A program made the position numbers and the translations under genes. Positions 16,677-63,558 of a stretch of DNA of 64,000 bases are shown here, in pieces. Source of the stretch: a delta proteobacterium MLS_D (GTDB lineage Bacteria > Desulfobacterota > Syntrophia > Syntrophales > UBA2210); assembly GCA_002030015.1 (NCBI GenBank), contig LQBH01000001.1, positions 103,900 through 167,899 on the forward strand. The letters run 5' to 3'. Below the pieces are notes generated by a model. That model was given only the letters and a program-made list of their open reading frames with translations, made no database searches and was not told where the DNA came from. Numbering within the stretch: position 1 is the first letter of the stretch; each line of letters opens with the position of its first letter.

Positions 16677-16682
16677 GAGACA

Positions 16683-17438: not shown

Positions 17439-17461
17439 TGCCGGTTATTCCTCGCCGCCGG

Positions 17462-28096: not shown

Positions 28097-28257
28097 GAAG
28101 ACAGGGGTGACAGGGGAGCGTATTCTTCCTTGTTTTAATGGCGCGGACCGGAAGAATACAGTCCCGGTCGACGGGCCGCCGATTCCGACGAAAGCGTTTC
28201 CCGGACCGATTTTACCGGGACGGCGCATTCACAACTGAAAACGACAGAGGAGGAATT

Positions 28258-31234: not shown

Positions 31235-31463
31235 GAAGGGTCTCCTCACGATGTCCATCCTTCTAGCACGAAGGCCGGTTACTGTCAAAAGCGGGTGCGG
31301 CGGGTGTTTATTTACGGCTCGTTCATTACTGCCTGCGGATTTGAGGGTTTTGAGGGTTGACGGGTTCGCTTTGAGGTGCTATGCGACGCATTATTCACGG
31401 TCGGAAAGGTTTGGTATCTTCCTTTCGGATTCGTGATTATTCCGGTGAACAGGAGGCGTTTCC

Positions 31464-31688
31464 ATGAGCATTGAGATCGAATCCCCCATGCCGGGAACGG
31501 TCCAGGAAATATTCGTGACGGTCGGCGACAGGCTGGATGCGGATGAGCAGATTATTGTCCTGGAGGCGATGAAAATGGAGCACTCCATATTCACGCCCGC
31601 CGAGGGCGTGGTAACCGATGTGCTGGTTGAAGAAGACCAGAAGGTTGAAGCGAGGCAGGTTCTTGTGCTGCTCGAATCACCGGAATAA
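31464..31688 (+). CDS. stand-alone biotinyl/lipoyl-carrier domain protein (BCCP-like, 74 aa)
   Basis: AGGAGG SD and the biotinylation motif EAMKME inside a typical hammerhead-type sequence (PMPGTV..V.VGD.V...Q.L..LEAMKME). Confidence 0.8.
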   Translation: MSIEIESPMPGTVQEIFVTVGDRLDADEQIIVLEAMKMEHSIFTPAEGVVTDVLVEEDQKVEARQVLVLLESPE

Positions 31689-31721
31689 AGGAACGGGAAA
31701 CCCGAAACGACAGTGATTGCG

Positions 31722-47231: not shown

Positions 47232-47690
47232 ATGCTTCGTAAAGCAAAAGTAAGCGACGTTAAATATATTCACCGCATGATAAACGATTCGGCCCGCCGG
47301 GGGGAGATGCTTCCCCGGTCCCTCATGGAGTTGTACGGCTTCCTGCGGGACTATTTTGTCTATTGCCCCAATGACGGCAAGACGGTCGTGGGCGTCTGCG
47401 CCATGCACATATTCTGGGAGAACCTCGCGGAAGTGCGGTCGCTCTTCGTGGCGCCGGAGTACCGGCGCAAAGGAATCGCCACGAAACTTGTTGAAGCCTG
47501 CATTTCCGAAGCCATCACCCTTGACCTGTATCGCATTTTCACCCTGACCAACCAGGAACTGTTTTTCAAGAGCATGGGATTCATCGAGGTCGACCGCGCG
47601 ACACTTCCCGAAAAGATCTGGACGGAATGCATGAAGTGTCCCAAGTATCCTGATTACTGCGACGAAATTCCGATGATCATTGAACCATGA
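47232..47690 (+). CDS. GNAT-family N-acetyltransferase (small ArgA-like type)
   Basis: 152 aa with acetyl-CoA motif A (LFVAPEYRRKGIATKLV) and a C-terminal CMKCPKYPDYC. Confidence 0.75.
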   Translation: MLRKAKVSDVKYIHRMINDSARRGEMLPRSLMELYGFLRDYFVYCPNDGKTVVGVCAMHIFWENLAEVRSLFVAPEYRRKGIATKLVEACISEAITLDLYRIFTLTNQELFFKSMGFIEVDRATLPEKIWTECMKCPKYPDYCDEIPMIIEP

Positions 47691-49069: not shown

Positions 49070-49241
49070 ACAGATTCACCATATGGACCGTCGCGCCGCA
49101 GGTCACGAGATCCGGTTCATGGCGTATTTCTTGTACGAGTTGTGACATCATGGCGGCTATACAGTCATTTCCGCCCATGATGACGGTCGGAGGGACTATT
49201 TGCGGGGCGGGTCGATTCTCGACACGGACGGGAACAATGGC

Positions 49242-49865
49242 ATGAGAGAACGCGTCGTAAAAATATATTATGCAGTGATTGGAAAAGCGGTCCGACCGCT
49301 GGCGAATAGTTCTCTTTCTCCGAACACCCTGACCCTGCTTTCGCTCCTGGTTTCCCTGGGTGTTTTCTTTCTCTTCGCGGGCGGCTGTTTTTTTCTCGGC
49401 GGCCTGGCGCTCCTCCTGTCGGGACTGTTTGACACGATGGACGGAACTGTCGCCCGTCTCGAAGGGCGAGCCACGCGATTCGGAGCGCTGCTCGATTCAA
49501 GCGCGGACCGCCTCGCGGATTTTTTTATATTCGCGGGATTGCTGGTTTATTTCCGGCAGGGGCCGACATTCTACGGGCTGCTTATGGCGCTGGCGGGCTC
49601 TTACCTGGTGAGTTACGTGAAGGCCCGGGCCGAATCACTGGGAACGATCCGCGTGGTTGGTTTCATGCAACGCCCGGAACGTATACTGCTTCTCGCCGCC
49701 GCGTCGCTGTCGGTACCTCTCACGGCGGCCTGGTTTCCCGGTTATTCGGAAGTTCCCCTTGTTACCGTCATTTGGTTCATGGCGGTCGCCACAAACATAA
49801 CGGCGGTTCACCGGCTTCTGGCGGCACGCCGTGATCTCGATGATTCATCACGCCTCGCCGGCTGA
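49242..49865 (+). CDS. CDP-alcohol phosphatidyltransferase family protein
   Basis: 207 aa with the complete signature DTMDGTVARLEGRATRFGALLDSSADRLAD (D-x2-DG-x2-AR-x8-G-x3-D-x3-D) and about 6 TM helices. Confidence 0.85.
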   Translation: MRERVVKIYYAVIGKAVRPLANSSLSPNTLTLLSLLVSLGVFFLFAGGCFFLGGLALLLSGLFDTMDGTVARLEGRATRFGALLDSSADRLADFFIFAGLLVYFRQGPTFYGLLMALAGSYLVSYVKARAESLGTIRVVGFMQRPERILLLAAASLSVPLTAAWFPGYSEVPLVTVIWFMAVATNITAVHRLLAARRDLDDSSRLAG

Positions 49866-49874
49866 TCGGCGGAG

Positions 49875-51476
49875 TTACCAGCTGTCGACGCGGGGACGTT
49901 TCTTGCCGGTGCGCACCGGGGGCTCGGGCTGGGCCCGCAGTCCACGTATGATCCAGTGGCGGGTATCGACGGGATCGATAACATCGTCGATCTCGAGACA
50001 GGCCGCCATGTTGAGCGCCTTGCCGTGTTCGTAGTGAAGCGCCACGAGTTCTTCGTAGCGCTTCTGCCTTTTTTCCGGGTCCTCGATGGCGTCCAGTTCT
50101 TTCTTGAATCCCAATCGTACGGCGCCTTCAAGTCCCATGCCGCCGAACTCACCCGTGGGCCACGAGACGATAAAGTCGGAATTATGAAAACTTCCGCCGG
50201 CCATGGCCATGGCACCGAGACCGTACCCCCGCCGCAACACAATGCTGAACAGAGGTATATCGGAATTAACCGCGTTCATGAAAATGCGGCAGAAATGACG
50301 GACCTGGGCTGTTTTCTCTGCTTCGGGTCCCACCATGAACCCGGGGGTGTCTATGAGAATGATCATGGGAATATCGAAGGCGTCGCACAACTGGACAAAC
50401 CGGGCGATTTTGTCGGCGCCGTCCGAGTCGATGGCGCCGGCCAGGTGAAGCGTGTTGTTCGCCATCAGGCCGAAAGGCTTTCCCTCGATCCTCACGAGCG
50501 CGGTGACGATACCAACGCCAAAATCGTGCCGCAGTTCAAGAACCGAATCGGTGTCGGCGAGCAGGTGTATGACTTTCCTGACGTCATAGGCCCGCCTCCT
50601 GCTTTTCGGTATCGAATGCCGCAGGAGCCGCTGATCGGCGCAGTCCCAGTCCGGCAGGTCTCCCTGAAAATAGGACAGATACTTCTTTGTTTTGGCCACG
50701 GCGTCGGCGTCGTCTTCGGCGACGATATCGACAACACCGTCCGCGGTCTGCACCTCGATCGGTCCTATTTCTTCGGGCGCGAAGACGCCCAGGCCGCCGC
50801 CCTCGATCATGGCCGGACCCGCCATGCCGATGTTGGAATCCTTCGTGGCGATGATAACATCGCAACAGCCCAGCAGCGCGGCATTGCCGGCGAAACAGCG
50901 GCCCGTTACGACGCCCACCACGGGGACCAGACCGCTCAGCCTTGCAATATGTGAAAAGGACCTGAACTCAAGACCCGCCACGATAATTTCCATCATGTCA
51001 ACATCGCCGGGCCGACCGCCTCCGCCTTCGGCGAACAGGACCAGCGGCAGCCTCCACTCATAGGCAAGCTCGAGCACGCGGTCTTTCTTCTTGTGATTGA
51101 ACCATCCCTGGGTGCCGGCCAGAACGGTATAATCATAGCCGATGGCCAGGCAGCGGCTCTTCGATGGTTCGAACATGTCGCTGTTCACCGATCCCACCTC
51201 GGCGACGAGCCCGTCGCCGGGAGTCTTACGAATGAGTTCGTCTTTGGGAACCCGGCTGCGTTGCGCCGCAAGCGTGAACGCGCCGTATTCAATCGTATCG
51301 TCGTTGTCGAACAGGTCGGCGATGTTTTCCCGTATCATACGGTGTCCCTGCTTACGGCGTTTCGCCACGGCGTCGGGCCGCGCTTCATCGCGGGTCAGGT
51401 TGCGGCGTTCGATGACTTCCGCCAGTTCCGGCCTGATTTCATCGGGATTTGCCTGTTTCTTGTTTCTGTCGCTCAT
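49875..51476 (-). CDS. acyl-CoA carboxylase/decarboxylase carboxyltransferase subunit (AccD/PccB/GcdA family)
   Basis: 533 aa from the ATG at 51476 (GGAG SD). Tandem crotonase-like CT domains with FAEGGGGR, AGNAALLG, MAGPAMIEGG, DTPGFMVG and RRGYGLGAMAM. Confidence 0.85.
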   Translation of the reverse strand: MSDRNKKQANPDEIRPELAEVIERRNLTRDEARPDAVAKRRKQGHRMIRENIADLFDNDDTIEYGAFTLAAQRSRVPKDELIRKTPGDGLVAEVGSVNSDMFEPSKSRCLAIGYDYTVLAGTQGWFNHKKKDRVLELAYEWRLPLVLFAEGGGGRPGDVDMMEIIVAGLEFRSFSHIARLSGLVPVVGVVTGRCFAGNAALLGCCDVIIATKDSNIGMAGPAMIEGGGLGVFAPEEIGPIEVQTADGVVDIVAEDDADAVAKTKKYLSYFQGDLPDWDCADQRLLRHSIPKSRRRAYDVRKVIHLLADTDSVLELRHDFGVGIVTALVRIEGKPFGLMANNTLHLAGAIDSDGADKIARFVQLCDAFDIPMIILIDTPGFMVGPEAEKTAQVRHFCRIFMNAVNSDIPLFSIVLRRGYGLGAMAMAGGSFHNSDFIVSWPTGEFGGMGLEGAVRLGFKKELDAIEDPEKRQKRYEELVALHYEHGKALNMAACLEIDDVIDPVDTRHWIIRGLRAQPEPPVRTGKKRPRVDSW

Positions 51477-51660
51477 TGATTCACTCTCCGGGATTAATGC
51501 GAAAAACGGCTTTCCGTGGATTTGAAAGAATCCGGGAAAACGTAGAACGTGCACTCATACCTTATTTTTATTTTTGTGACAATTCCTCCCATAAGAGGGA
51601 TGCCCCTGTATGCCCGCCGTGTTTGCTGAAGCGAGAGAGAAGCTTGTTAAACGAAGACCC

Positions 51661-52995
51661 CTATTTTATACCGTATTTTTTAAATACCTGTTCTGTGTCT
51701 TCACCGATTCGGGCGGAGATTCTTTTGATCCGCAGCGGTGTTTTTGACATTTTGCCCGTGACGGGAACCTGGAATATACCGTAATAGTGATCATCTACTT
51801 TGAAAAAGGTGTTTCTCGCCTTCCAGTGGTCTACTTCCATGACTTCTCTGGGGCGCAGCATTCTCGTGGTGACGGGCAAGCCGCCTCCCCGCCATTTTGA
51901 TCGTGCCACCTTGATGCTGAATGCTTGAAATTTTTTAAATATTTCATCGAATGTCATGGAAGCTATAGCCTGCTCAATTTCACGGTTCAATGTTTTTGCC
52001 TTTTCCACGTCGTCGGTGATCCTGTCGAGAAGTGTTTTCCATTCCTCTTCAATTTTCCAGAGTCCCAGAATACGAAGAGCAGCCCTGAAATCCTGGTCCC
52101 TGAAGCAGGCGATTGCGGCGTAACCATCCTTGCATTTGAAAAAACCGTACGGGCAGAGCCCGTAGTCAAGTGTACCGTAGCGCGGGCGGGGTTTTTTCCA
52201 AATGTCCCCGATGGTGGGTGGAAATCCCACGCATGAGGAAAAGGAATCGGCCGTGGCAACATCAACCATCTGGCCACGTCCCGTGCGACGCTTGAAAAAA
52301 AGAGCCATGAGCGCTGAACAGACGGCCGACACGGCGCTCGCGTATCCTCCCGCGTGGAATCCGGCCCTGGTAGGCCAGTTATAAGGTTCGGGGTCATCCG
52401 GTAGTGCCCCGACGAGGGCTGCCATTCCCGATTCCGCCTGGCTGGTAATGTCGGACCACGGAATGGACGCAAGTTTTTTCGCGTGTTCAGTGTATTGGCC
52501 GTAAGGTGTTATGGCTACGTAAACGAGAGAAGGATTGATTTCTTTCAATTGCCGATAGCCGATACCCAGCTCGTCAAGCAACCCCGGTTCAAACGTTTCG
52601 ATGAGCACGTCGGCTTTTTGCGCCAGGGCGCGCAACCTGTCCCTGTCCGTTTCATCGTGAATATCGAGACATATATTATGCTTATTCCTGCTTTCCATAA
52701 TATAGGGAATGCCGGTTCCCTTCACGGTTTTGCCGTAAGGCGTCATGAGACGGGCCGGGTCGCCTTCCGGGGGTTCTATTTTAATAACTTCCGCGCCTCC
52801 TTCCGCGAAAAGACTTGACGCGATGAGTCCGGTGAAATTGGCGTAGCTGAGATCGAGCACGACCGTATCCGCCAGTGCTTCGGGTTTGCCTTCGGGAGAC
52901 AGGATATCGGAAAGGATGCTGCTCCATTCAGATATCCGCTTCACCGCGCCTTTGTTCTGCATGTGTCGTGAATAGACTTTTTCCTTACTCGGCAT
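51661..52995 (-). CDS. family III (CaiB/BaiF/Frc-type) CoA-transferase, copy 2
   Basis: 444 aa from the ATG at 52995 (GGAG SD, 11-nt overlap with copy 1). VVLDLSYANFTGLIASSLFAEGGAEVIKIEPPEGDP N-terminal motif. Confidence 0.8.
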   Translation of the reverse strand: MPSKEKVYSRHMQNKGAVKRISEWSSILSDILSPEGKPEALADTVVLDLSYANFTGLIASSLFAEGGAEVIKIEPPEGDPARLMTPYGKTVKGTGIPYIMESRNKHNICLDIHDETDRDRLRALAQKADVLIETFEPGLLDELGIGYRQLKEINPSLVYVAITPYGQYTEHAKKLASIPWSDITSQAESGMAALVGALPDDPEPYNWPTRAGFHAGGYASAVSAVCSALMALFFKRRTGRGQMVDVATADSFSSCVGFPPTIGDIWKKPRPRYGTLDYGLCPYGFFKCKDGYAAIACFRDQDFRAALRILGLWKIEEEWKTLLDRITDDVEKAKTLNREIEQAIASMTFDEIFKKFQAFSIKVARSKWRGGGLPVTTRMLRPREVMEVDHWKARNTFFKVDDHYYGIFQVPVTGKMSKTPLRIKRISARIGEDTEQVFKKYGIK

Positions 52996-54346
52996 CGCTT
53001 TCTCCACCATAGTTAAATATTTCGTCTTTTTCGATATTGTAGTAAACGGGAGGACGCTGACCCACGCGGTAGTCCCAGTATCCCACCACGTATTCTTTTT
53101 CGAGTTGCCTGATTTCAGACTCCGAAAGTCCGAGAAGTGTTTTAAAAATATAGCGGTTATGGTATCCCAGCGGCCGGGTGAGCCACTTTATCCGGCCCGG
53201 AGTTTCACTCATCATTGCCGCCGAACCGGCCATGGTCAGTTTCCTGTACATAGGATCATTGAATTCGACGACACTGCCGCGTTCTTTACGCCATTCATCC
53301 CTGCTTATACTTACGTCGTCCTCCACTTCACTCAGGGCGAATCTGCAGGTTTCACGAATTTTCCGTATATCGGCGATTTTCAGCGAGTCAATCCATTCCG
53401 CTACAATTCGGTGTAATTCTTCGGCATGAGCCGGCTTCAATCGTTCAAGTGCTTCCGCGAAACGGGAATCGGTTGCGAGGTCATTTCTTTTCATGACTTT
53501 ACAAAGCGATCCGAACTGCTCATCCGTTCCCACGGCAAGCGCGACAAAACCGCCATCCGCTGTTTTAAAAATGCCGGAAGGAGATACGGTGGGGTCCTGG
53601 TTTCCTGTTCTTTCCAGGTCGTCTCCCGTGGCACTGGTGTATGTGAATTGAAAAAGCGACCTCATCAGAATCTCTGCCTGGGAAATATCGAGGTACTGTC
53701 CTTCACCCGTTCTTTCGCGGTAATTGAGCGCCATCATGACGAGCATGGCGGCAAAGAACCCGGGGTAAAAATCACCGAAGAAATCAGGTATCTTAAAAAA
53801 ATGCTCAGTATCGGGATACCCCGTGACACTTATAACCCCGCTTGTTCCCTGGGCGAGCAGGTCCCAGCCGGGGAAAAACCGGGACGGCCCGGTCTGGCCG
53901 AAAGTGCTGAGGCTGGCGTAAATAATATTCGGGTTCACGGCACGGGTCTGGGTGTAGCCGATTCCCCAGGCTTCAACCGTGCCGCTGGCAAAATTTTCGA
54001 TCACGATGTCGGATTGTTCAGCCAGTTTCAGGATGAGTTCTTTTCCGCGGGGATACTTGACGTCGATGCCGACGAAGTACTTGCTGTGATTGATAAAGTG
54101 CCACATGGGATTTGAATGCTTCCAGTATTTTCCCCAGTAGGTGGCGCTCCGCCAGTAATCCCCCTGGTAGGGAACCTCGACCTTGATTACCTCGGCACCG
54201 TGTTCGGCGAGCACATCGGCTGCCTTGGGACCGAAGATCATGTGGGACAAATCGAGCACCCTGATTCCTTTCAGCGCTTCAGATTTTTTATCCACCTGTG
54301 ACCGATCGAAAACCTCGGCCATGTAGGAAAAGTAATCGTTATTCAT
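52985..54346 (-). CDS. family III (CaiB/BaiF/Frc-type) CoA-transferase, copy 1
   Basis: 453 aa from the ATG at 54346 (GGGAG SD inside the end of livF). IRVLDLSHMIFGPKAADVLAEHGAEVIKVEVPYQGD N-terminal motif. Confidence 0.8.
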   Translation of the reverse strand: MNNDYFSYMAEVFDRSQVDKKSEALKGIRVLDLSHMIFGPKAADVLAEHGAEVIKVEVPYQGDYWRSATYWGKYWKHSNPMWHFINHSKYFVGIDVKYPRGKELILKLAEQSDIVIENFASGTVEAWGIGYTQTRAVNPNIIYASLSTFGQTGPSRFFPGWDLLAQGTSGVISVTGYPDTEHFFKIPDFFGDFYPGFFAAMLVMMALNYRERTGEGQYLDISQAEILMRSLFQFTYTSATGDDLERTGNQDPTVSPSGIFKTADGGFVALAVGTDEQFGSLCKVMKRNDLATDSRFAEALERLKPAHAEELHRIVAEWIDSLKIADIRKIRETCRFALSEVEDDVSISRDEWRKERGSVVEFNDPMYRKLTMAGSAAMMSETPGRIKWLTRPLGYHNRYIFKTLLGLSESEIRQLEKEYVVGYWDYRVGQRPPVYYNIEKDEIFNYGGESDAE

Positions 54347-54350
54347 AAAA

Positions 54351-55058
54351 TCAGACTCCCATGTAGGCTTGTTTGATGAGATCACTGGAAAGCAGCTCGC
54401 TGCTCGTTTCTTCCATCACGATTTCACCGTCCTGCATCACGTATCCCCTTGTACTGATTTCAAGGGCGATCTGCGCGTTCTGCTCCGCCAGAAGGACCGT
54501 AACCCCCTGTTCAGGGAGCTTTTCGATTGCGCTGTATATCTGTTGCTGAAAAGCCGGACTCAACCCCAGTGACGGTTCGTCGATCATAAGAAATCTGGGT
54601 TTGGCCATCAAACCGCGGGCGATGACGAGCATCTGCTGTTCACCGCCGCTCATAAGGCTGGCGCGTTGATCTTTTCGCTCGGCAAGGATGGGAAAGATGC
54701 CGGTTACCAGGTCGAACATTTCATGGCGGTTGCTCCAGGCGCCACGGGTGCTTGCTCCCATGAAAAGGTTTTCTTTCACCGTCAAAAACGGAAAAATCTT
54801 CCGTCCTTCGGGAATCTGTGAAATACCGCCTTTCACGATGTTCTGCGGCTGAGAGTTTTCAATATTTTTTCCGTTAAAGATGATCGATCCTGATGACGGT
54901 CTGAGAAGGCCGGATATGGTATTCAGAAGCGTCGTCTTTCCCGCCCCGTTCGAGCCAAGAAGCGCCACCAGTTCCCCACTTTCGACGGACAGACTGATAG
55001 TGTGAAGAACAGGAATAACACCATATGAGACATTAAGATTTTTAATTTCAAGCATCAT
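54351..55058 (-). CDS. livF: Liv-type ABC transporter ATP-binding protein (LivF-like)
   Basis: Walker A GSNGAGKTT, signature MSGGEQQML, Walker B FLMIDEPS. Confidence 0.85.
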   Translation of the reverse strand: MMLEIKNLNVSYGVIPVLHTISLSVESGELVALLGSNGAGKTTLLNTISGLLRPSSGSIIFNGKNIENSQPQNIVKGGISQIPEGRKIFPFLTVKENLFMGASTRGAWSNRHEMFDLVTGIFPILAERKDQRASLMSGGEQQMLVIARGLMAKPRFLMIDEPSLGLSPAFQQQIYSAIEKLPEQGVTVLLAEQNAQIALEISTRGYVMQDGEIVMEETSSELLSSDLIKQAYMGV

Positions 55059-55783
55059 CAGTGTTTGCCTCCTAAATAGGCCTCGATGATCCGGGGATCA
55101 TTGGCGATCTGTTCGGGAGGTCCTTCTGCGATTTTTTTGCCGTACTGCAGGACCACTATTCTCTGTGCCGCTTTCATGATGATCTTCATAACATGCTCGA
55201 TCCACAGGAGAGTGATGCCGAACTGCTCCTGAGCGCTCCAGATCATCTCAAGCGCCCGTTCCGATTCAACGGGATTGAGACCAGCCATGACTTCATCAAG
55301 CAGGAGCAGTTTCGGCGTTGTCGCCAATGCCCGGGCAAGCTCCAGCATCCGCAGTTCGTAAAGATTCAGATTTGAGGCAAGTTCATCCCGTTTAGAAAAG
55401 AGACCGACAAACTCGAGGTAATACGAGGCCTCGAGACCTGCGTCCGAGAAGCACATGTGAGGCCGTTTTTTGCCGTTTAACACGGCGGTGACTACTCCCG
55501 CCAGTGCCGTCATAGCGTAAAAGGGCTGGGGAATCTGGTAGGTTCTCGATATGCCAAACCTGCAGATTTTGTCGGAGGAAAGCCTGGTGATTTCGTTTTC
55601 TTCAAAAAATATTTTTCCCTCGGCTGGCCTGTAGACACCGCAGATAATGTTCATCATGGTTGTCTTTCCCGCCCCATTCGGGCCAATGAGTCCCACGACT
55701 TCACCCTCCCCGACGGAAAAACTCACGTCGTCGAGAGCACGAAGTCCCCCGAAATTAATTCCGATGTTTTGAATTTTCAGCAC
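55058..55783 (-). CDS. livG: Liv-type ABC transporter ATP-binding protein (LivG-like)
   Basis: Walker A GPNGAGKTT and Walker B LLLLDEVMAG. 1-nt overlap with livF (TGATG). Confidence 0.85.
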   Translation of the reverse strand: MLKIQNIGINFGGLRALDDVSFSVGEGEVVGLIGPNGAGKTTMMNIICGVYRPAEGKIFFEENEITRLSSDKICRFGISRTYQIPQPFYAMTALAGVVTAVLNGKKRPHMCFSDAGLEASYYLEFVGLFSKRDELASNLNLYELRMLELARALATTPKLLLLDEVMAGLNPVESERALEMIWSAQEQFGITLLWIEHVMKIIMKAAQRIVVLQYGKKIAEGPPEQIANDPRIIEAYLGGKH

Positions 55784-55858
55784 GTCGGACGTATCTCCTT
55801 TGTTTCTATAAGCTGTATTGAGCGCATTCGGCGAAGATCATTCGATTACACCTGCGGG

Positions 55859-56902
55859 TTACTCCCGTCGGACATGTAGCCTGGGGAAGTAGTCACGCGG
55901 GTGACGTTTGTGGTAAAGTCCCCACAATCCCTCGCCGCGTGGGAGCACATAGATCAGTGCGATCAGGACCAGAGGAAATATCCAGTGACTGACATGGCCG
56001 AAACCGCGAAGTCCTTCTTCGAGCATGGCAACGGCATAGGCGCCCGGAACGGCGCCATAGACAAAAGCGCGGCCGCCGATAATAACGATAAATAGTATTT
56101 TCAGCATGAATTCCAGCGGGAGATAGGTTACTCCGGCGAATGACCGGAACGTGTGAACGATGAACCATCCCACGATCCCGGTGAGGATTGAAGGCAAGAC
56201 ATAATAGAATACTTTGTACTTGCTGACATTGATTCCCATCATGCGTGCCACGTCTTCATTTTCGTTTATTGCCGCGAGTGAAACTCCGAAACGGGAACGG
56301 CCTATTTTATCCGCCGTCAGCATATAGAGAAGCATCAGAAACAGCGACAGATAATAATACGAAAGGTAGTTCCAGCGGACTCGCCCCAGATCAAGCAGGG
56401 GACTCATGCCGAACAAACCGACCTCTCCCCTGAAAATGTCGCCGAACTGGTATGTCAGGTCGAGAAACGCGAGAGGAAGAATGAGGGTAATAAGCGAGAA
56501 ATAAAGTCCCCGGGCGATCCAGGTGATGGGACTGAGAAGCAGGGCGATGGAACCACAAACGATAATGGTGCCCGCGAGAGTGAACGGGGGGCTCCATCCC
56601 AGATGCAGGTTCAGCAGTGCCGCCGTGTAGCCGCCGATGCCAAGATAGAACTGGGGGCCGAAATTAACCCTGGCCGTTCCCAGAATCTGAAGGCTCAGAG
56701 GAATGGCGATCGCCGCCAGCAGGTTAGCCGTGGTAAGCATGGTCAGCAGGTGCGGGTAAGAATAAAAGAACAGGGGCAGCGCCAGGAGAATAGTAACGCC
56801 GATAACAGGATTCCTCCAGTATCGGGGTTCTATGCACCATTCGTATTTTTCGATTCCCCACCGCAACAGGACGCGGTCTCGTTTCAATTCAAAATTTACC
56901 AT
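55859..56902 (-). CDS. livM: Liv-type ABC transporter permease (LivM-like)
   Basis: 347 aa, polytopic. 7-nt overlap with the upstream permease gene. Confidence 0.8.
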   Translation of the reverse strand: MVNFELKRDRVLLRWGIEKYEWCIEPRYWRNPVIGVTILLALPLFFYSYPHLLTMLTTANLLAAIAIPLSLQILGTARVNFGPQFYLGIGGYTAALLNLHLGWSPPFTLAGTIIVCGSIALLLSPITWIARGLYFSLITLILPLAFLDLTYQFGDIFRGEVGLFGMSPLLDLGRVRWNYLSYYYLSLFLMLLYMLTADKIGRSRFGVSLAAINENEDVARMMGINVSKYKVFYYVLPSILTGIVGWFIVHTFRSFAGVTYLPLEFMLKILFIVIIGGRAFVYGAVPGAYAVAMLEEGLRGFGHVSHWIFPLVLIALIYVLPRGEGLWGLYHKRHPRDYFPRLHVRRE

Positions 56903-57768
56903 ATCGTTTCTCCCGCAACTAGTCCTCCCCGTTTAACGATCAAAAATATAAGCGTCACGAACAGTGCTGCGAAACTCATGAACCGGGGCGCCAGTAGAAA
57001 ACTGGTTGAAAAATGGATAAAGGCGATCAGGTAGGATGCCATGATGTTGCCTTTCAGGTTTCCCAGTCCGCCGAGGATTGCGATCAACAGTGCTGTAATG
57101 AGAAGAGGTTGTCCCATGTGAGGGTCGACGCCCCAGAAAGGGGCGATCATGAGAACGCAGATCGAAGGGGGTATCACCGCCATAATCATGGCAAGGTAAT
57201 ACATATTGTCCACGCTTGCCCCCATGAGCCTGGCGGCGTTCAAATCCTGGCTCATGGCACGGATAATGAGGCCGGTTCGCGTTTTGAGAAACATCAGCAC
57301 GAAGAGGGCCGTAACAACAATGCCGACGACGGCAGCCGCTATCATCTGATAAGACACGTTGACTGCGCCTATTTTGGCCATTCCCGGGATCAGCGTCGTT
57401 GGGATCGTTACTCCCACCGTCACGGGATAGAGCCAGTTTGAAAAATGGCTCGCGGCAAGGAAAAGAAGAATGGAAATCACCAGCAGGTTTTCCTCTTCAT
57501 CCAGGTAACGTTGAAATACACCCTTGTAAAAAACGAAAACGGCGATAAACATTTGCAGAAGTAACATGAGAATAATACTCGGGACCAACCCCAACTGCAT
57601 ATCGGACAAGAAGAACCACATGCCGTAAGCGGCGATCACAAAGGTTATACCGTAACCAAGGTGAAAGATGCGCAGAACCCCGCAGATTAATGAAAAACCG
57701 ATCGATATGAGAAGATAGATCGATCCCCACAAGAGTGTGTAAATAATAATATTTTGAATTACATCCAT
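56896..57768 (-). CDS. livH: Liv-type ABC transporter permease (LivH-like)
   Basis: 290 aa, polytopic, with a family-typical length and hydrophobic profile. Confidence 0.8.
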   Translation of the reverse strand: MDVIQNIIIYTLLWGSIYLLISIGFSLICGVLRIFHLGYGITFVIAAYGMWFFLSDMQLGLVPSIILMLLLQMFIAVFVFYKGVFQRYLDEEENLLVISILLFLAASHFSNWLYPVTVGVTIPTTLIPGMAKIGAVNVSYQMIAAAVVGIVVTALFVLMFLKTRTGLIIRAMSQDLNAARLMGASVDNMYYLAMIMAVIPPSICVLMIAPFWGVDPHMGQPLLITALLIAILGGLGNLKGNIMASYLIAFIHFSTSFLLAPRFMSFAALFVTLIFLIVKRGGLVAGETIW

Positions 57769-57877
57769 GGTGTTGTTTCCCGATAAAAGGCACTGTTCGC
57801 GGTGCCGGTTTGCTGTAAATTACGGCCGCGGGCGACCGGGACGGCATCGCCCGCGGTGTCGAAGTACGATAATGAAG

Positions 57878-59140
57878 TTACTTCCTCAGATCGGCCGGCT
57901 GCTGGAAAGTTCCCTGGGCCACGTCGGAGGGATAAACCGGTACCATTTTACCGTCCTGCCACTGGACAATGGGTGTCACGTAGTCAGGGTAGGGAATATT
58001 GTAATGATATCTGGCATCCCATCCTATTTTTCCCAGAACGGCTGTTTCACGTACATTTTCTAGTGATTTTATTATTTTGTTTGTATCCTTGGTGTCACCC
58101 GCCTGTTCAAGTGCTTTTTTATAGCCGTAAAGCGTGTCATACGTCGTATGGGAACCGAAAATAGGACCGGTTTTATATTTTTCCACCATGTTATCCATGA
58201 AGGGGATGGTCTTTTCGGTAATGGGAACCCGGACGAACGATGAACCGATGCTTCCGCCGGCGACCATGCCCTCGGTCATATTCCACGCCATGGGCATGCC
58301 GGCGAGACCGCCCCAGAAAAACCAGGGAATATCACGGGCACTCGACTGGGCCCATTGCTTGATGAATGCCGGTTGGTCGATGTACCCGACGACACAGTCC
58401 ATCACGCAGGCGCCCTTTTTTGCAACATCCTCGAAAAGTGTGCTGAAAACTTTTTGATCCAGGGAGATAGTTTTTTCATACACCACCTCCAGGCCCTGGT
58501 TTTCGTAAACTTTTCTGAGGCTCGGAGAAACGCCCGGGAGCCCGTCTCTCAGTGGTTTCGTCCAGTCCATGTCCTCATATATCAGGGCAACTTTCGTGGC
58601 GCCGACGAAATTTTTAAAGAAATCTGGAATGATCTGTCCTCCCATAATTTCCAGGTAGTGGGAGGAGACAAAATAATACGTCTGAAAACCGAACTTGAAT
58701 CGTTCATAATCGTCGCGCACATGATGCCAGATGGCATCTCCGGATCCTATGGTGGAGAACATGATGTGCGGAAATTCACGGAAAAGTTCGGCGCCTATCT
58801 GCATGCCGGCGACTCCCATTTCTACCTTTTCAGCTACCACAATCGCGTCGACACGGTTGTGCATGACCAGTTTTTTATATACTTCTATACCCTTTGGAAT
58901 TTCCCCTTTGGTGTCTTCCGAGAGGAGCTCGACGGGTCGTCCCAGAATGCCCCCCGCCTCGTTCATCTCTGCTACGGCAAGCTTGGCGGCCGCCTGCGCG
59001 CTCAGAGAAAAGGGCGCCGAAAGATTTCCCATGAAACCAATTTTGATAGGTTTTCCTTTCTGTGCCAGTGCGGGTGACATACCCAGGGCGATGCACAGCA
59101 TGACCGTAACAACGGTGAAGAATAAACGGGCTTTGTTCAT
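57878..59140 (-). CDS. Liv-type (type I PBP) periplasmic substrate-binding protein, ligand unknown
   Basis: 420 aa from the ATG at 59140 (GGAGGA SD). Signal peptide MNKARLFFTVVTVMLCIALGMSPALA, then IKIGFMGNLSAPFS..AVAEMNEAGGILGRPVELL. The track ORF extends 83 codons further upstream without support. Confidence 0.85.
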   Translation of the reverse strand: MNKARLFFTVVTVMLCIALGMSPALAQKGKPIKIGFMGNLSAPFSLSAQAAAKLAVAEMNEAGGILGRPVELLSEDTKGEIPKGIEVYKKLVMHNRVDAIVVAEKVEMGVAGMQIGAELFREFPHIMFSTIGSGDAIWHHVRDDYERFKFGFQTYYFVSSHYLEIMGGQIIPDFFKNFVGATKVALIYEDMDWTKPLRDGLPGVSPSLRKVYENQGLEVVYEKTISLDQKVFSTLFEDVAKKGACVMDCVVGYIDQPAFIKQWAQSSARDIPWFFWGGLAGMPMAWNMTEGMVAGGSIGSSFVRVPITEKTIPFMDNMVEKYKTGPIFGSHTTYDTLYGYKKALEQAGDTKDTNKIIKSLENVRETAVLGKIGWDARYHYNIPYPDYVTPIVQWQDGKMVPVYPSDVAQGTFQQPADLRK

Positions 59141-59306
59141 GGCATCCTCCTTTTGTTGGTTCGTCTGTTGCGGTTGTTCAGTGGTATATTCTGTCGCGAC
59201 GGACGGAATGCATGTGCCGATCCGTTTCAAAGAAAAACATCCGGATTCTGGGAGTCCGGCGCGACCTTCGAATCCCGGTAGTCTGATCACCAATCGAAAA
59301 AAGCTC

Positions 59307-59321
59307 GCAAATCGCGTGCCA
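59307..59321 (-). promoter_or_regulatory. sigma-54 (-24/-12) promoter of the ABC/CoA-transferase operon
   Basis: The minus strand reads TGGCACGCGATTTGC, an exact TGGCACG-N4-TTGC, 167 nt upstream of the SBP start codon. Confidence 0.75.
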
Positions 59322-59324
59322 TGT

Positions 59325-59388
59325 TGTGCTGATCGACAGGTTGCGCGAACAGCGCCCGTCGATTCGCTGTTTCGCGGGTCGGAGCACA
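59325..59388 (-). promoter_or_regulatory. nested imperfect inverted repeat between the activator gene and the -24/-12 element
   Basis: On the plus strand: TGTGCTGATCGAC..CGCGAACAGCG-10 nt-CGCTGTTTCGCG..GTCGGAGCACA. It could be a terminator/insulator hairpin or a protein-binding site. Confidence 0.4.
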
Positions 59389-59472
59389 AATTAATTAAAC
59401 GACATTTCGTTAACTAACCGCATGCCGTGACAAACGGTCCGCCCGGTATTCAGCATGGCGCTTTCGGGAACA

Positions 59473-62400
59473 TCACGTGGAGCCGCTTACGTAATTTGCT
59501 TTTTTCGAAATGCCCAGTTTTTTCATTCGTGAAAAAAGCGTGTTGGGATGAATGTCAAGAATTCCAGCGGCGCCTCCCGGTCCCGTTACTTTTCCGCGGG
59601 TTTTCGTGAGAACCCGGAGAATATGGTTTCTCTCATTATCGCGAAGTGTGAGGGTCTGGTCGTACTGTTGCGTCCTGCCGCCGTTGAGCTCAGGTACCCG
59701 GTAAACCTTCCCTTTACTGAGAATAACGCCTCGTTCTATGACATTTTCGAGTTCTCTCACATTACCGGGCCAGTCATAGGAGAGAAGTTTTTCCATCTCT
59801 TCCCGGGGAATAACCGCTACGTCCTTGTTGCACTTGTTCGCGTATAAATTTAAAAAATAACACGCGAGCAGGGGGGTGTCTTCTTGCCTGTCCCGAAGAG
59901 GGGAGACATTAATTGGAAAAACGTTCAGACGGTAAAAAAGATCGCGGCGGAAGCGACCGTTTTTCACTTCCCGCTCCAGGTCGCGGTTGGTTGCGGCGAG
60001 AAGCCTGAAGTCTGACCGCAGCGTTTCGTGACCACCGACTCGCTCGAATTCCTTGCTCTGAAGCACACGGAGAAGTCGTACCTGGACATCCATCGAAATG
60101 TCTCCGATTTCATCCAGAAAAATGGTGCCTCCATCGGCCAGTTCGAATCTGCCGATCTGTTTTGAAGTTGCGCCCGTGTAGGCCCCTTTTTCATGGCCGA
60201 AGAGTTCGCTCGAGATCAGGCTTTCCGGCAAGGCGCTACAGTGTACCCGTATGAAAGGTTTTTCAGCGCGATCACTGTGACGGTGAATGAACCGCGCCAC
60301 CAGTTCCTTGCCTACCCCCGTTTCGCCGAGAATGAGCACCGTTGTGGAGGTTTGCGCCACCTGTTCGGCTTGAGCGAAAACATTTCTGATGGCGGGGCTT
60401 TTTCCGACAAAATCGTCAAAATGAATTGTCTCCAGATATTCCCGTTCGTAATGTTCTTTTTCGAGTTGTTGTTGTTTGTACAGCTTTCGCAACGTTTGCC
60501 ACGCTTCGGCGTTATCCATTGCGATGGCCGCCTGAGAGGCGAAGTAATTGAGTATTTCCAGGTCAGATTTTTTAAAGGCGCTTCGAAAGAGGCGGTTGTC
60601 ATGATAGAGCACGCCTTTTACTGTGTTCCTGATCTTGAGGGGAACGCAGATACATGATTGAATAGTATTTTCGGATTCCGAACGGAGTGGTTGATTGTTC
60701 CCGTTGAATTCCATAATCTTCCCTTCGCCCGTGCGCGTGGTTTCCGTGATGAGTTTCATGGAATCCTGAAACGTGGCAAGATCGATATCTTCCGCCGTCA
60801 GGTTTTTCGCGGCTTTCAGAACAATCTTATCGGTTCTTCCGTTTTCCAGGACGAAAATGGCGCCGCGCTCGGCCCCTGTTATTCTGTTGACCGTCGAGAT
60901 GATCCGATTGGAGAGTTCCCGGTAATCCCGGATGATCGGTAATTCATGACCAAGACGCAGTATTTCTTCCAGCAGGCTTTCGCCGTTGCGAAGATTTTTA
61001 ACAAGCGGGCGGATGTCGTCGGGAACGAGGTGTTCATTGAAAGAATGAAGCAGCCTGGCTGCCGGTCCGGCGATTTCGATGGCCTTTTTTTCATTTCCCG
61101 CGCGTATATACTCGCGTGCCGTTTCTATCTTGGAGTTGGCTATCTCAATGCTGTGGCCGCAAATTTCCAGGTCGACGACGGACTTGTCAAGTTCCCGAAG
61201 AACTTCGCTGCAGGGTTGTCCCGCATGTCTCAACTGCAGAGCCAGGTGACGGTGAGCAACGCCGCTCAGGAGGTAATTGCCGCTCTCCATGGAATATTTG
61301 ATTTCCTCTTCCAGGGACATGCCGGGAATCCGCGGGAATTCTCCGTCTTCGATGGCCTGGCAGATCGCCAGCCCCACGGCGGTATATTTCACGGTCATCC
61401 CGCATCGGCGCCCGAGATCGATATATTCTTTCAGACAGTCAACGGCCTTCTTGTGATCGTTCACTAGGTGATAAGCGTACGCGAGCAACGCGAGTCCCCC
61501 CAGCCGGGCGTAATAGCTTTTACTTTTTTCAGCTTCATCCCACGAGCCCTGAATGCACGTGATGGCGTCTTCGGGGCGGTTCACTTCCAGGAGAAGATAT
61601 CCCAGTGTTACTCCCGCGAGGGACGCCACTGAAAGATTGCCGATAGTGCGGCCGTGAACGCGGATGGCGTGAAGCATGCCCATCGCCTGAGAATACAGTC
61701 CCGTGTGTCCAAGGCACACACCGGCCGTCAGCGCGGCAAGGAGGGGCATTCTGCCCTTGGGAAACTGGTCTTCCACGTCCGGCACAAGAGTTTCGTAACT
61801 CTGGACGACTTCCCGGTACCGGCCCGACCAGTAGTTATAGAACATACCGAAAATCGTTGCAGATTTCTGGATACCGGGATCATTTCTGGTGCGGATCATT
61901 TCCCAGCCATGCCGGAAGTGGTCTAACGCCTGGCGGTAATGTGAGCGAAGCCATTCGCTCTTGCCCAGATGCATTTCGAGAAAAGCCACTGCATCCATGT
62001 CGCTCGTTGATTCAGCCCTTGCGATTGCTTCCCCGATTATTGCAATGACGCGATTGGGATTATCGCTGTCCGTTGAAACTTTGCAATATTCAAGGGCAGC
62101 TTCAATAAAGAGGCTGTTCGATGCGGGATCCCGAAGATTTCTCAAATCGTCGAGGGCCTTTTCATAAAACAGTCGTGCTTCTTCATCCCTGAAATGCCGG
62201 CGGTGGTGTATGCCGTTTTCAATGAGAAGCTGGCAGCCGTTGTAATCATTGCTGATATGAAGCAGATGGCGGGCCGTTCTATGTATTCTGTCCGGGCTTT
62301 CTGGCAGGTTTCTGATCAGAAGATCTGCGATTTTGTTGTGAAGATCTGTCCTTATTTCACGAGGGAGGGAACGTGCCAGCTTTTCCTGCTCTGAACCGTC

Positions 62401-62622
62401 TATGAAGGAAAAATTGACCAGATTGTTTCGATAAAGCCACCTCTGTTTCGTTCCGAATTCCAGGGCGGCAAAGATAATCGACGCCCTTTCACCCGTCAGT
62501 TCTTGAAGCCAGTCAATGCTGAACTCGCCGTCAAACAGGGAAGCGAATTCAAGGACTCGAAGATGTTTTTCTGTGAACACGTCGGAAGCCACGATCGGTT
62601 GCATGGTTTCTCCACGCCGCAT
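59473..62622 (-). CDS. sigma-54-dependent transcriptional activator with large helical-repeat (TPR/MalT-sensor-like) N-terminus and GAF domain
   Basis: 1049 aa. The first ~540 aa are helical repeats, followed by a GAF-like block (about 560-710). AAA+ motifs GETGVGKELVARFIH, GAYTGA and ESELFGHEKG. C-terminal HTH (PNTLFSRMKKLGI). An alternative start at 62604 is possible. Confidence 0.85.
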   Translation of the reverse strand: MRRGETMQPIVASDVFTEKHLRVLEFASLFDGEFSIDWLQELTGERASIIFAALEFGTKQRWLYRNNLVNFSFIDGSEQEKLARSLPREIRTDLHNKIADLLIRNLPESPDRIHRTARHLLHISNDYNGCQLLIENGIHHRRHFRDEEARLFYEKALDDLRNLRDPASNSLFIEAALEYCKVSTDSDNPNRVIAIIGEAIARAESTSDMDAVAFLEMHLGKSEWLRSHYRQALDHFRHGWEMIRTRNDPGIQKSATIFGMFYNYWSGRYREVVQSYETLVPDVEDQFPKGRMPLLAALTAGVCLGHTGLYSQAMGMLHAIRVHGRTIGNLSVASLAGVTLGYLLLEVNRPEDAITCIQGSWDEAEKSKSYYARLGGLALLAYAYHLVNDHKKAVDCLKEYIDLGRRCGMTVKYTAVGLAICQAIEDGEFPRIPGMSLEEEIKYSMESGNYLLSGVAHRHLALQLRHAGQPCSEVLRELDKSVVDLEICGHSIEIANSKIETAREYIRAGNEKKAIEIAGPAARLLHSFNEHLVPDDIRPLVKNLRNGESLLEEILRLGHELPIIRDYRELSNRIISTVNRITGAERGAIFVLENGRTDKIVLKAAKNLTAEDIDLATFQDSMKLITETTRTGEGKIMEFNGNNQPLRSESENTIQSCICVPLKIRNTVKGVLYHDNRLFRSAFKKSDLEILNYFASQAAIAMDNAEAWQTLRKLYKQQQLEKEHYEREYLETIHFDDFVGKSPAIRNVFAQAEQVAQTSTTVLILGETGVGKELVARFIHRHSDRAEKPFIRVHCSALPESLISSELFGHEKGAYTGATSKQIGRFELADGGTIFLDEIGDISMDVQVRLLRVLQSKEFERVGGHETLRSDFRLLAATNRDLEREVKNGRFRRDLFYRLNVFPINVSPLRDRQEDTPLLACYFLNLYANKCNKDVAVIPREEMEKLLSYDWPGNVRELENVIERGVILSKGKVYRVPELNGGRTQQYDQTLTLRDNERNHILRVLTKTRGKVTGPGGAAGILDIHPNTLFSRMKKLGISKKANYVSGST

Positions 62623-62877
62623 TACCGGCAGGCAGCTTTGTCTGTATCCGATTTTACACTGAAACTTACCCGGGAAACCAATGCTTTGTCAATTGTTCTT
62701 ATTCGACGTGTCCGACGGTGAAATGTTGTTTCAGGGAGATCGACGGCGACCCCTGACCGTTTAATCGGTTGATATTTATTCGGGAAACGGATGATTGACA
62801 AACAAACGAAGGTATACTATGAAGGCACGCTGCCCTGAATAATCGAATTGACCGAGATATCAATAATTTTATGTAAA

Positions 62878-63558
62878 ATGGAAAAAGAGAGCCAACAGAA
62901 AGAATTGCCGCGTCCGGCGATTGTTGTGTGCTGCAAGCCGATCCGGCTTCTGCTGCTCATGGTGGTGTCGCTGGGTCTGTTTTTCGCGGGCGATTATCAG
63001 AATGTCCTCGTTATGAAGTATTCTCCCGTCGTTGAGCAGCCAGACACCTTCCTGGAGGAGATTCCGGAACCTGCTCAGGCGAGGGAAGAGCGGGCGCCGG
63101 AACCGGCGGTCGCCGAAGAAGTTCCTGCTTTCGATTGTAAAAGACAGGACAGTTTCGACGACATTATCGAGGAAGCGGCCGTCCGTTATAACGTCGAAGC
63201 CGCGCTGGTGAAGGCGATCATCATGGCCGAGTCCGGCTATGATCCCCGCGCCGTTTCAAGCCGCGGCGCCATGGGGCTCATGCAGCTCATGCCCGGAACC
63301 GCCGAATCTCTCGGCGTTAAAGACGGGTTTAACCCCGAAGAAAACATTGATGCCGGTGTCAGGTATTTCAGAAATCTCATGAATAATTTTGGAGAAGAGA
63401 CCCGCCTCGCGCTTGCGGCTTACAACGCCGGACCGAGAAAGGTAAGGGAATACAGCGGAGTTCCTCCTTTTCCGGCGACACGCGTCTACATCGAAAAAGT
63501 CTTTCGGTACTATCGCTATTTCAAGGACTCACCCGGCGGGTCGATGGAGAACGTCTGA
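62878..63558 (+). CDS. SLT-domain lytic transglycosylase with N-terminal membrane anchor
   Basis: SLT motif ESGYDPRAVSSRGAMGLMQLMPGTA and AYNAGP; TM helix LLLLMVVSLGLFFAG. The start is uncertain (ATG at 62878 or TTG at 62848). Confidence 0.8.
   Translation: MEKESQQKELPRPAIVVCCKPIRLLLLMVVSLGLFFAGDYQNVLVMKYSPVVEQPDTFLEEIPEPAQAREERAPEPAVAEEVPAFDCKRQDSFDDIIEEAAVRYNVEAALVKAIIMAESGYDPRAVSSRGAMGLMQLMPGTAESLGVKDGFNPEENIDAGVRYFRNLMNNFGEETRLALAAYNAGPRKVREYSGVPPFPATRVYIEKVFRYYRYFKDSPGGSMENV

Follow-up and report, generated by a model that had tools for sequence, protein, structure and literature searches.

The window analysed here is a stretch of 64,000 nucleotides from the delta proteobacterium MLS_D, an uncultured bacterium resembling sulfate reducers (order Syntrophales; assembly GCA_002030015.1, contig LQBH01000001.1, positions 103,900 to 167,899 of the forward strand). 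The locus in question occupies positions 49875 to 62622 of its minus strand, where nine long open reading frames (ORFs) encode a sigma-54 activator, a Liv-like ABC importer with its substrate-binding protein (SBP), two class III CoA-transferase subunits (CoAT1 and CoAT2) and a biotin-dependent carboxyltransferase (CT). CoAT1 matches a 'delta proteobacterium MLS_D' protein at 100% identity, and the nearest relatives are found in metagenome-assembled genomes of Syntrophales, Syntrophaceae and Desulfobacteraceae. An initial annotation, made from the letters alone, had read these genes as one operon under sigma-54 control, and as a self-contained catabolic module for an organic acid that could not be mapped to a described pathway.

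Domains of the window ORFs were assigned with Pfam, and the equivalog cut-offs of NCBIfam served as the test for membership in an orthologous group. For comparison with other organisms, the window proteins were searched by tblastn against 48 loci fetched from genomes and metagenomes, which are denoted by L-numbers below. Checking ORFs and sequence confirmed that the genes, overlaps and -24/-12 promoter element lie where they had been placed (Table 1). At the junctions, livH and livM overlap by 7 nt (56896-56902) and livG and livF by 1 nt (55058), livF is separated from CoAT1 by 4 nt if the latter starts at ATG 54346, and CoAT1 and CoAT2 overlap by 11 nt with one of two possible Met start codons of CoAT2 and by 26 nt with the other. 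Only the gap between CoAT2 and the CT gene had to be revised, from 184 to 181 nt, as counted to ATG 51479, which is preceded by a ribosome-binding site.

Table 1. Features of the locus, and a biotin carrier gene found elsewhere in the window (positions are those of the window).
Feature	Position	Strand	Basis
Sigma-54 enhancer-binding activator, 1049 aa	59473..62622	-	Pfam Sigma54_activat, AAA_lid_14, GAF
Palindrome AACGA-N4-TCGTT, candidate upstream activator sequence for the activator helix-turn-helix	59398..59411		Fixed offset across lineages
Sigma-54 promoter element TGGCAC-N5-TTGC (-24 GG / -12 GC)	59307..59321	-	Exact consensus match
Type I (Liv/HAAT-like) SBP, Sec signal peptide	57878..59140	-	Pfam Peripla_BP_6 7.8e-30
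GC-rich hairpin and T-run between SBP gene and livH, possible attenuator	57789..57806	-	Pattern scan only
ABC permease, LivH/UrtB-like	56896..57768	-	Pfam BPD_transp_2 3.4e-24
ABC permease, LivM/UrtC-like	55859..56902	-	Pfam BPD_transp_2 2.2e-29
ABC ATPase, LivG-like	55058..55783	-	Pfam ABC_tran + BCA_ABC_TP_C
ABC ATPase, LivF-like	54351..55058	-	Pfam ABC_tran 8.6e-32
Class III CoA-transferase subunit 1 (CoAT1), 453 aa	52985..54346	-	Pfam CoA_transf_3 6e-95
Class III CoA-transferase subunit 2 (CoAT2), 449 aa	51661..53010	-	Pfam CoA_transf_3 1.7e-77
Motif TTGTCACAAA within TTGTCA-17 nt-TATGAG, CoAT2-CT gap; possible sigma-70-type promoter/operator for CT	51573..51582	-	Motif shared with relatives
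Stand-alone biotin-dependent carboxyltransferase of the LCC (long-chain acyl-CoA carboxylase) type (CT-A), 534 aa	49875..51479	-	Pfam Carboxyl_trans 1.4e-73
Orphan biotin carboxyl carrier protein, 74 aa, EAMKM motif	31464..31688	+	Pfam Biotin_lipoyl 6.5e-18

The importer and CoA-transferase cassette

Across related genomes, the gene neighbourhood consists of an invariant core of seven genes and a variable CT gene: the order SBP-livH-livM-livG-livF-CoAT1-CoAT2 was the same in ~45 loci, wherever the contig was long enough, and down to 43-56% identity. Judged by gene order, the evolutionary unit is therefore this seven-gene cassette. It occurs in many metagenomes from anaerobic sediments, wetlands and digesters, in multiple copies in some genomes, and also in the cultured sulfate reducer Desulfatitalea tepidiphila (WP_054030432.1). 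Copies of ~62% identity on contigs attributed to Korarchaeota (L009, L010 and L036), where the cassette lies beside genes for an enoyl-CoA hydratase and an AMP-ligase, suggest a transfer between domains. Literature searches for this combination of genes, for the source organism and for malonate CoA-transferase pathways returned no description of the cassette; each of its parts is of a known kind, while the combination is uncharacterised yet common.

All five components of a HAAT importer (TC 3.A.1.4) were recognised by Pfam, namely a type I SBP, two BPD_transp_2 permeases and two ATPases, one of them with BCA_ABC_TP_C. The same components and the same SBP fold are found in LivJHMGF and other HAAT importers, including the carboxylate-binding members of Rhodopseudomonas palustris. 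Scores against the curated models were nevertheless low throughout: the LivG-like ATPase reached 204.8 bits with the NCBIfam LivG model (cut-off 362) and the LivF-like ATPase 246 bits with LivF (cut-off 441), the LivH-like permease reached 68.6 bits with UrtB (cut-off 250) and 25.4 bits with LivH, the latter likewise below cut-off, and the SBP did not exceed 52 bits against a cut-off of 495. The window permeases scored higher with Urt than with Liv models, and below the cut-offs of both, and by this test the importer falls outside the LivJHMGF and UrtABCDE orthologous groups.

The signal peptide of the SBP ends in ALA and is followed by QK, and the AlphaFold model of the protein (predicted local distance difference test score, pLDDT, 92.6) agreed with a type I SBP fold in Foldseek. 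Its neighbours in the PDB bind leucine, gamma-aminobutyrate (GABA), pyroglutamate, urea or 4-hydroxybenzoate; with identities of at most 21% and ligands this mixed, an assignment of the ligand from structure was dropped. Among orthologues, SBP identity stays at 58-93% across the main cassette group and then falls to ~35%, a plateau and drop that suggest that the main group shares a single class of ligand.

CoAT1 and CoAT2 are paralogues of 27% identity, and both cover the CoA_transf_3 profile in full (positions 1-366 of 366). In class III CoA-transferases, a catalytic aspartate forms an acyl-aspartyl anhydride intermediate. The corresponding residue of CoAT1, in the GWD of PGWDLLAQGTSG, aligns with the Asp-containing motif (Y-D) of 10uh, 4ed9 and YfdE (4hl6), and the Asp of CoAT2 in PWSDITSQAESG aligns with that of CoAT1. 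The top PDB relatives of CoAT1 are 10uh (1e-52), 4hl6 (2e-46) and 9br7 (9e-43), and among characterised enzymes it comes closest to those that act on dicarboxylates, namely YfdE (acetyl-CoA:oxalate), the formyl-CoA transferase group, SUGCT (succinyl-CoA:glutarate) and succinyl-CoA:mesaconate CoA-transferase, with NCBIfam scores of 198-202 bits that stay far under the respective cut-offs of 522-750 bits. These enzymes form homodimers and have no ABC importer or CT linked to them. Over all equivalogs, CoAT1 scored at most 201.9 bits against cut-offs of 413-750 (750 for the best one) and CoAT2 at most 139.4 bits against a cut-off of 700, which on profile scores places both outside the characterised groups Frc, YfdE, CaiB, SUGCT, mesaconate CoA-transferase and Mct.

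The nearest parallel for the pair is BbsEF (9FN0), the succinyl-CoA:(R)-benzylsuccinate CoA-transferase, a two-subunit class III enzyme of which CoAT1 matched chain B (BbsF-like) best (7e-36) and CoAT2 chain A best (7e-29). CoAT2 directly follows CoAT1 in all related loci, usually with overlapping genes, and by analogy the two probably form a BbsEF-like heteromer. The likeness lies in the two adjacent paralogous subunits that both keep the catalytic Asp motif; the similarity is weak, however, and, unlike the bbs genes, the pair described here is tied to an ABC importer at the level of the operon, the comparison being one of genes only.

The family-level matches to Liv and Urt components, and structural neighbours of the SBP that include leucine-, GABA-, pyroglutamate- and urea-binding proteins, speak for a different role of the cassette, in which the importer takes up an amino acid or a small amide and the CoA-transferases act on a downstream product, either a 2-hydroxy or 2-oxo acid as in HadA/FldA Stickland fermentation or 4-hydroxybutyrate derived from GABA. 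Some related cassettes are also followed by a gene of the HpaB family (the 4-hydroxybutyryl-CoA dehydratase family) or by an Fe-alcohol dehydrogenase gene. However, none of the Liv and Urt scores comes near its curated cut-off, the SBP is as close to aromatic-acid binders as to the others at no more than 21% identity to any solved protein, and neither the window cluster nor its closest relatives encode an aminotransferase, a deaminase or a dehydrogenase. The tight junction of livF and CoAT1, which is kept from Bacteria to Korarchaeota, fits a direct hand-over of the imported molecule instead, and import of an amino acid or amide is considered very unlikely.

Several of the related loci have features of their own. 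L007, which is a 4.8-Mb genome, has two tandem importer/CoA-transferase cassettes (4724-12695 and 16016-21359), with a TetR gene, acyl-CoA dehydrogenase genes, a gene of the acetoacetate decarboxylase family and an AMP-ligase gene around and between them. In a more distant cassette subfamily of 43-55% identity (L041, 11395-15429; L043, 2871-6905; L047, 487-2052), the cassette of L041 and L043 is followed by an SDR gene and two genes for FAD-dependent phytoene-desaturase-like oxidoreductases, and in L047 one such oxidoreductase gene lies upstream; this subfamily probably serves a different substrate. Transposase genes of the IS1595 family adjoin the cassette in L005 (2455-3135) and L038 (1042-1893), consistent with the rearrangements of L005, namely a displaced activator gene and an exchanged CT type.

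The activator and its predicted sigma-54 promoter

The activator has a Sigma54_activat domain (PF00158, 5.5e-71, residues 739-904), a GAF domain (9e-11, residues 565-704) and AAA_lid_14 by Pfam, and its sequence contains the Walker A motif GETGVGKE, FLDEIG and GAYTGA; by domain and motif content it qualifies as an AAA+ sigma-54 enhancer-binding protein. While the GAF domain and the AAA+ module with GAYTGA thus stand as initially annotated, the helix-turn-helix (HTH) and the tetratricopeptide repeats (TPR) turned out to be weaker than stated, both remaining below the Pfam cut-offs: the C-terminal HTH_8 scored 19.9 bits (cut-off 22), and the N-terminal TPR matches of 24-27 bits stayed under a cut-off of 30 bits (TPR_12 27.2 against 30.1, TPR_2 21.6 against 27). 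The ~540 N-terminal residues are best termed a TPR-like helical region without family assignment. A sequence search with this region found no relative in the PDB, and a single-sequence AlphaFold model of it was all-helical, but with a pLDDT of 46.5. The best NCBIfam matches of the activator were FhlA, NifA and NorR, all below cut-off. With these GAF activators it shares the order GAF, AAA+ (GAYTGA being a GAFTGA-type loop) and putative Fis-type HTH as well as a candidate site ~90 nt upstream of the -24/-12 element; it differs by its additional helical N-terminal region, which has no solved relative.

The promoter element, TGGCACGCGATTTGC, is the sole match to TGGCAC-N5-TTGC in the 64 kb, where ~0.12 matches would be expected by chance. 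Its GG and GC doublets are 10 nt apart, and it lies 167 nt upstream of the ATG of the SBP gene. An exact element, in one copy each, was also found upstream of the SBP gene in L002, L004 (the same as L049-51), L005 and L006/L016, so that it is conserved in five lineages, and the lineages with an exact element are exactly those with an orthologous activator. In L002, L004 and L005, the cassette is linked to an activator orthologue of 64-69% identity; in L005 the activator gene has been relocated downstream of the cluster and the promoter is still found in front of the SBP gene. No -24/-12 element was found in the more distant cassettes, which are also without the activator, and some of them carry a TetR gene instead.

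The intergenic regions upstream of the SBP gene cannot otherwise be aligned between lineages. A palindrome (59411 to 59398 in the window; TAACGA-N4-TCGTTA in its extended form) nevertheless begins at a constant distance, exactly 90 nt upstream of the element's first base, in the window, L002, L005 and L006/L016; it is absent in L004. This geometry is typical of an enhancer-binding protein site, and the palindrome is therefore read as a candidate and probable site of the activator. Control of the transporter and CoA-transferase genes by sigma-54 and the activator, as initially proposed, is well supported at the sequence level by the co-occurrence of element and orthologous activator and by the fixed offset of the palindrome. 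The hairpin between the SBP gene and livH may attenuate transcription of the membrane components, which would give an excess of SBP transcript.

The window encodes a further sigma-54 activator, which is of the NtrC response-regulator type, at 26483-27925 (+), beside a gene for a methyl-accepting chemotaxis protein with a dCache domain (28138-30147, +), and the presence of this activator shows that the organism uses sigma-54.

Carboxyltransferases and biotin carriers

The CT of the window, designated CT-A, covers both the N and the C half of the Pfam profile Carboxyl_trans (PF01039, positions 2-483 of 493). It aligns nearly ungapped over 500 residues to the CT domain of the LCC 4RCN (640 bits), and is 64-66% identical to the CT part of fusions of biotin carboxyl carrier protein (BCCP) and CT, or of biotin carboxylase (BC), BCCP and CT. 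LCC combines BC, BCCP and CT in a single chain, whereas the ORF in the window encodes a stand-alone CT only (534 aa, or up to 559 aa with the most distant start codon in frame), with no BC gene linked to it; by the single-chain criterion, CT-A as predicted from its ORF is not an LCC. BCCP-CT fusions without BC were also considered as a context clue and turned out to be uninformative, as one of them is isolated and another resembles a disrupted LCC.

A second type of carboxyltransferase, CT-B (PccB/12S type; best relatives 1vrg, 1e-105, and 1on3, 4e-94), shares no more than 27-28% identity with CT-A. The gene after CoAT2 encodes CT-A in the window, L001-L004, L014, L017, L019/21/22, L025, L030 and L031, and CT-B in L005, L006/16, L026/27 (twice) and L046; CT-B is further found after CT-A in L004, and upstream of the SBP gene in L033 and L040. 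By my own count, a CT adjoins the cassette in ~15 of 23 informative lineages. That two non-orthologous CTs have been recruited repeatedly, and at different positions, speaks for a functional link between CT and cassette. The same variation, together with orthologues that stand alone, did not uphold the CT as a fixed member of the operon, and from these neighbourhoods it is better described as a frequent accessory module of the cassette with a looser attachment.

Carriers in the related loci were found by a scan for the biotinylation motif. ORFs of ~70 aa lie beside CT-B in L004 (between CT-A and CT-B), L033, L040 and L046 (between CoAT2 and CT-B), and the carrier of L004, present in L004/L049-51, was confirmed as PF00364 by independent gene calls. 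The orphan carrier of the window is 42-47% identical to these ~70-aa carriers. It lies 18 kb from the CT gene without a carboxylase gene beside it, between small ORFs that have no Pfam matches (31080-31436 and 31713-32123), and is a candidate partner of the CT. The fullest cluster, in L004/L049, comprises the activator, the cassette, CT-A, a 71-aa carrier and CT-B, of which the window, on gene content, is a reduced version.

Transcarboxylase (12S/5S/1.3S) and the sodium-pumping methylmalonyl-CoA and glutaconyl-CoA decarboxylases (Mmd and Gcd) are alike in combining an acyl-CoA CT with a small carrier and no biotin carboxylase. They differ from the loci described here, which have neither a 5S subunit (acting on oxaloacetate/pyruvate) nor a membrane beta subunit, and which in L004 have two acyl-CoA CTs flanking the carrier. 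Since these defining partner subunits were not found, the predicted CT module falls outside both the Mmd/Gcd decarboxylases and classical transcarboxylase.

Genes for ADP-forming acyl-CoA synthetases (CoA_binding/Succ_CoA_lig/ATP-grasp_5) were repeatedly seen beside CT genes or the activator gene (L011, 3869-9748; L012, 7745-9844; L005, 18737-20173), which hints at substrate-level phosphorylation from the product acyl-CoA.

Proposed function, substrate and surrounding genes

With moderate confidence, I read the locus as a sigma-54-dependent operon for the uptake and CoA activation of a carboxylic acid, to which the CT would be a carboxyl-transfer accessory. Within this reading, a role in uptake and activation is, like the sigma-54 control, well supported, and the locus would resemble other catabolic operons that pair import with CoA activation under a sigma-54 activator of their own. 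The activator would sense a ligand through its GAF domain, its helical N-terminal region or both, bind the palindrome ~85-90 nt upstream of the -24/-12 element and open the sigma-54 promoter, the sites being conserved and their activity predicted. The transcript would then carry the genes for the SBP, the Liv/HAAT-type importer and, in tight translational packing after the second ATPase gene, the two class III CoA-transferase subunits. The importer would take up the carboxylic acid, and CoAT1 and CoAT2, as a probable heteromer, would move CoA to it from succinyl-CoA, acetyl-CoA or the product acyl-CoA; the nearest characterised enzymes take CoA from succinyl-CoA or acetyl-CoA and act on C2-C6 dicarboxylates. 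CT-A and a small free carrier would shift the carboxyl group between the acyl-CoA pool and biotin, in a decarboxylation or transcarboxylation of a 2-carboxy-acyl-CoA or in the reverse direction.

Several observations weigh against this reading of the locus. About one third of the related cassettes are without a CT and carry an enoyl-CoA hydratase gene, an HpaB-family gene, an Fe-alcohol dehydrogenase gene, a TetR gene or nothing recognisable in its place, and orthologues of CT-A stand alone in unrelated contexts, even in the L005/L011 genome, whose cassette has CT-B. In the window, the CoAT2-CT gap of 181 nt contrasts with the otherwise tight junctions. It does not align across lineages except for the short motif TTGTCACAAA, and it contains the candidate CT promoter TTGTCA-17-TATGAG; TTGTCACAAA also occurs upstream of CT-A in L017/L028/L029, and L001 and L014 have it with one mismatch; being common to two independent lineages only, it is weak as evidence. 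Base composition changes at the same boundary, from a GC content of 0.48-0.53 and a third-position GC content (GC3) of 0.57-0.62 in the eight cassette and activator genes to 0.59 and 0.72, respectively, in the CT gene. The ligand class of the SBP could not be inferred from its structural neighbours for the reasons given above. Finally, the scanned ORFs of the window included no gene for a biotin carboxylase, a 5S-type subunit or a membrane beta subunit, and none was linked in any related locus, so that the other half-reaction is either encoded elsewhere or carried out by a second CT. The description as a self-contained module could thus not be maintained: no carrier adjoins the CT, and no biotin carboxylase or carboxybiotin decarboxylase is linked to it.

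The gap with its candidate promoter, the GC3 step and the monocistronic CT-A orthologues in unrelated contexts would also be expected if only the seven-gene cassette were regulated, and the CT were a separately transcribed, more housekeeping component of an acyl-CoA carboxylase or decarboxylase that owes its place to inherited synteny. Vertical synteny is suggested by the genes past the CT: the window, L001, L004 and L014 have genes for a CDP-alcohol phosphatidyltransferase and a murein transglycosylase there, and L019, L021, L030 and L031 one for a murein transglycosylase-like protein. No -24/-12 element was found in front of any CT gene in the window or the related loci. What inherited synteny leaves unexplained is the repeated independent recruitment of CTs: the non-orthologous CT-B, 27% identical, takes the same position in L005, L006, L026, L027 and L046, and lies upstream together with a carrier in L033 and L040. 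The gap is moreover only ~45 nt in L019/L021/L022, and no intrinsic terminator was found between CoAT2 and the CT gene in the window. The window and L004 show the GC3 step, whereas L019, L025 and L046 do not; it was therefore rejected as a general rule and kept as weak local evidence. A CT that is a mere neighbour of the cassette is accordingly judged rather unlikely, and transcription of the CT gene in the window may combine read-through with initiation at its own promoter.

For the substrate of the proposed uptake and CoA-activation operon, a malonate-type acid (malonate, methyl- or alkyl-malonate) or a succinate-type dicarboxylate can be guessed with low confidence. The malonate type is the most economical guess, as it needs no further enzymes, while the succinate type would need an unlinked mutase and epimerase. 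Described pathways were considered in turn and set aside: the benzylsuccinate (bbs) pathway because beta-oxidation genes are missing and similarity is weak, the oxalate (frc/oxc) pathway for want of a thiamine pyrophosphate-dependent decarboxylase, the phthalate pathway for want of UbiD/UbiX, malonate degradation by mdc or mad for want of an acyl carrier protein, MadA or MdcA, and the conversion of succinate to propionate because mutase and epimerase are not linked. In agreement with the initial annotation, which could not map the locus to a described pathway, the profile scores of every enzyme are far below the NCBIfam equivalog cut-offs, and none reaches the curated threshold of an orthologous group assigned to a pathway.

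The direction of carboxyl transfer could also be assimilatory, in that a monocarboxylate such as acetate, propionate or butyrate would be converted to its CoA ester and on to (alkyl)malonyl-CoA, with carboxybiotin supplied by a partner encoded elsewhere. Both CT types belong to families, LCC and PccB, whose characterised members are mostly carboxylases, and LCC and its relatives accept C2-C16 acyl-CoAs, LCC with a much lower Km for palmitoyl-CoA (PMC6491548, citing PMC4319993). Against this stand the lack of a linked biotin carboxylase in any of ~50 loci and the preference of the nearest characterised CoA-transferases for dicarboxylates; ATP-driven, SBP-dependent import of short-chain fatty acids would, on general grounds, also be costly for such an anaerobe. 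The assimilatory direction is thus regarded as very unlikely.

A bolder extension of the carboxylic acid operon starts from the L004/L049 cluster. Here, the cassette would be a device for import and thioesterification, found from Thermodesulfobacteriota to Korarchaeota, which in its fullest form feeds an acyl-CoA:acyl-CoA transcarboxylase without BC (CT-A, carrier and CT-B) that moves the carboxyl group from a long- or medium-chain 2-carboxy-acyl-CoA to acetyl-CoA or propionyl-CoA. The window would then hold a reduced scavenging pathway for dicarboxylates of the alkyl-malonate or alkyl-succinate type. A transcarboxylation variant of the alkylmalonyl-CoA step is reportedly part of the literature on strain HxN1, and the enzyme for this carboxyl transfer in anaerobic alkane catabolism has been postulated and is not known to have been assigned. 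The lack of mutase or ass genes linked to the cassette weighs against this extension, and the broad range of habitats of the cassette argues for a commoner substrate than alkane derivatives, so that it is considered distinctly unlikely. An outline of anaerobic alkane and alkylsuccinate catabolism in Syntrophaceae and relatives is given in PMC5606693.

The value of the cassette lies in its spread and testability, and not, so far, in a surprising mechanism. Naming its substrate would annotate hundreds of genes that are now called 'branched-chain amino acid transporter' and 'CaiB-like', and would show how organic acids can be captured anaerobically without an ATP-spending ligase step; a biotin carrier/CT accessory without biotin carboxylase points to energy-saving decarboxylation or transcarboxylation. 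For ligand screening, the conserved promoter and palindrome offer a handle for a reporter.

Both flanks of the locus consist of housekeeping genes unrelated to the cluster. Beyond the CT gene, and convergent with the cluster, lie genes for RecN, a GNAT protein, MltA and a CDP-alcohol phosphatidyltransferase, and on the opposite side genes for a lytic transglycosylase and citrate synthase, all by Pfam. Two ORFs of 152 and 460 aa past the CT gene (47232-49069), which had been suspected by their size to encode AccB and AccC, were identified by Pfam as a GNAT acetyltransferase and MltA. An Rfam scan of positions 49000-63000 found no RNA elements.

Elsewhere, proteins of the HpaB family with ~485 aa are encoded in the window (6889-8349, +), in L023 directly after CoAT2 (2906-4369) and in L012 near a stand-alone CT-A (5687-7129). 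A protein of 1180 aa encoded at 9723-13265 (-) of the window has a spermine/spermidine-synthase-like domain together with a long TPR array at its C-terminus. At 32167-35144 (-), a hydantoinase-A/oxoprolinase-like gene (33462-35144) overlaps a gene of the histone deacetylase family (32167-33474) by 13 nt, and the two appear to form a two-gene unit.

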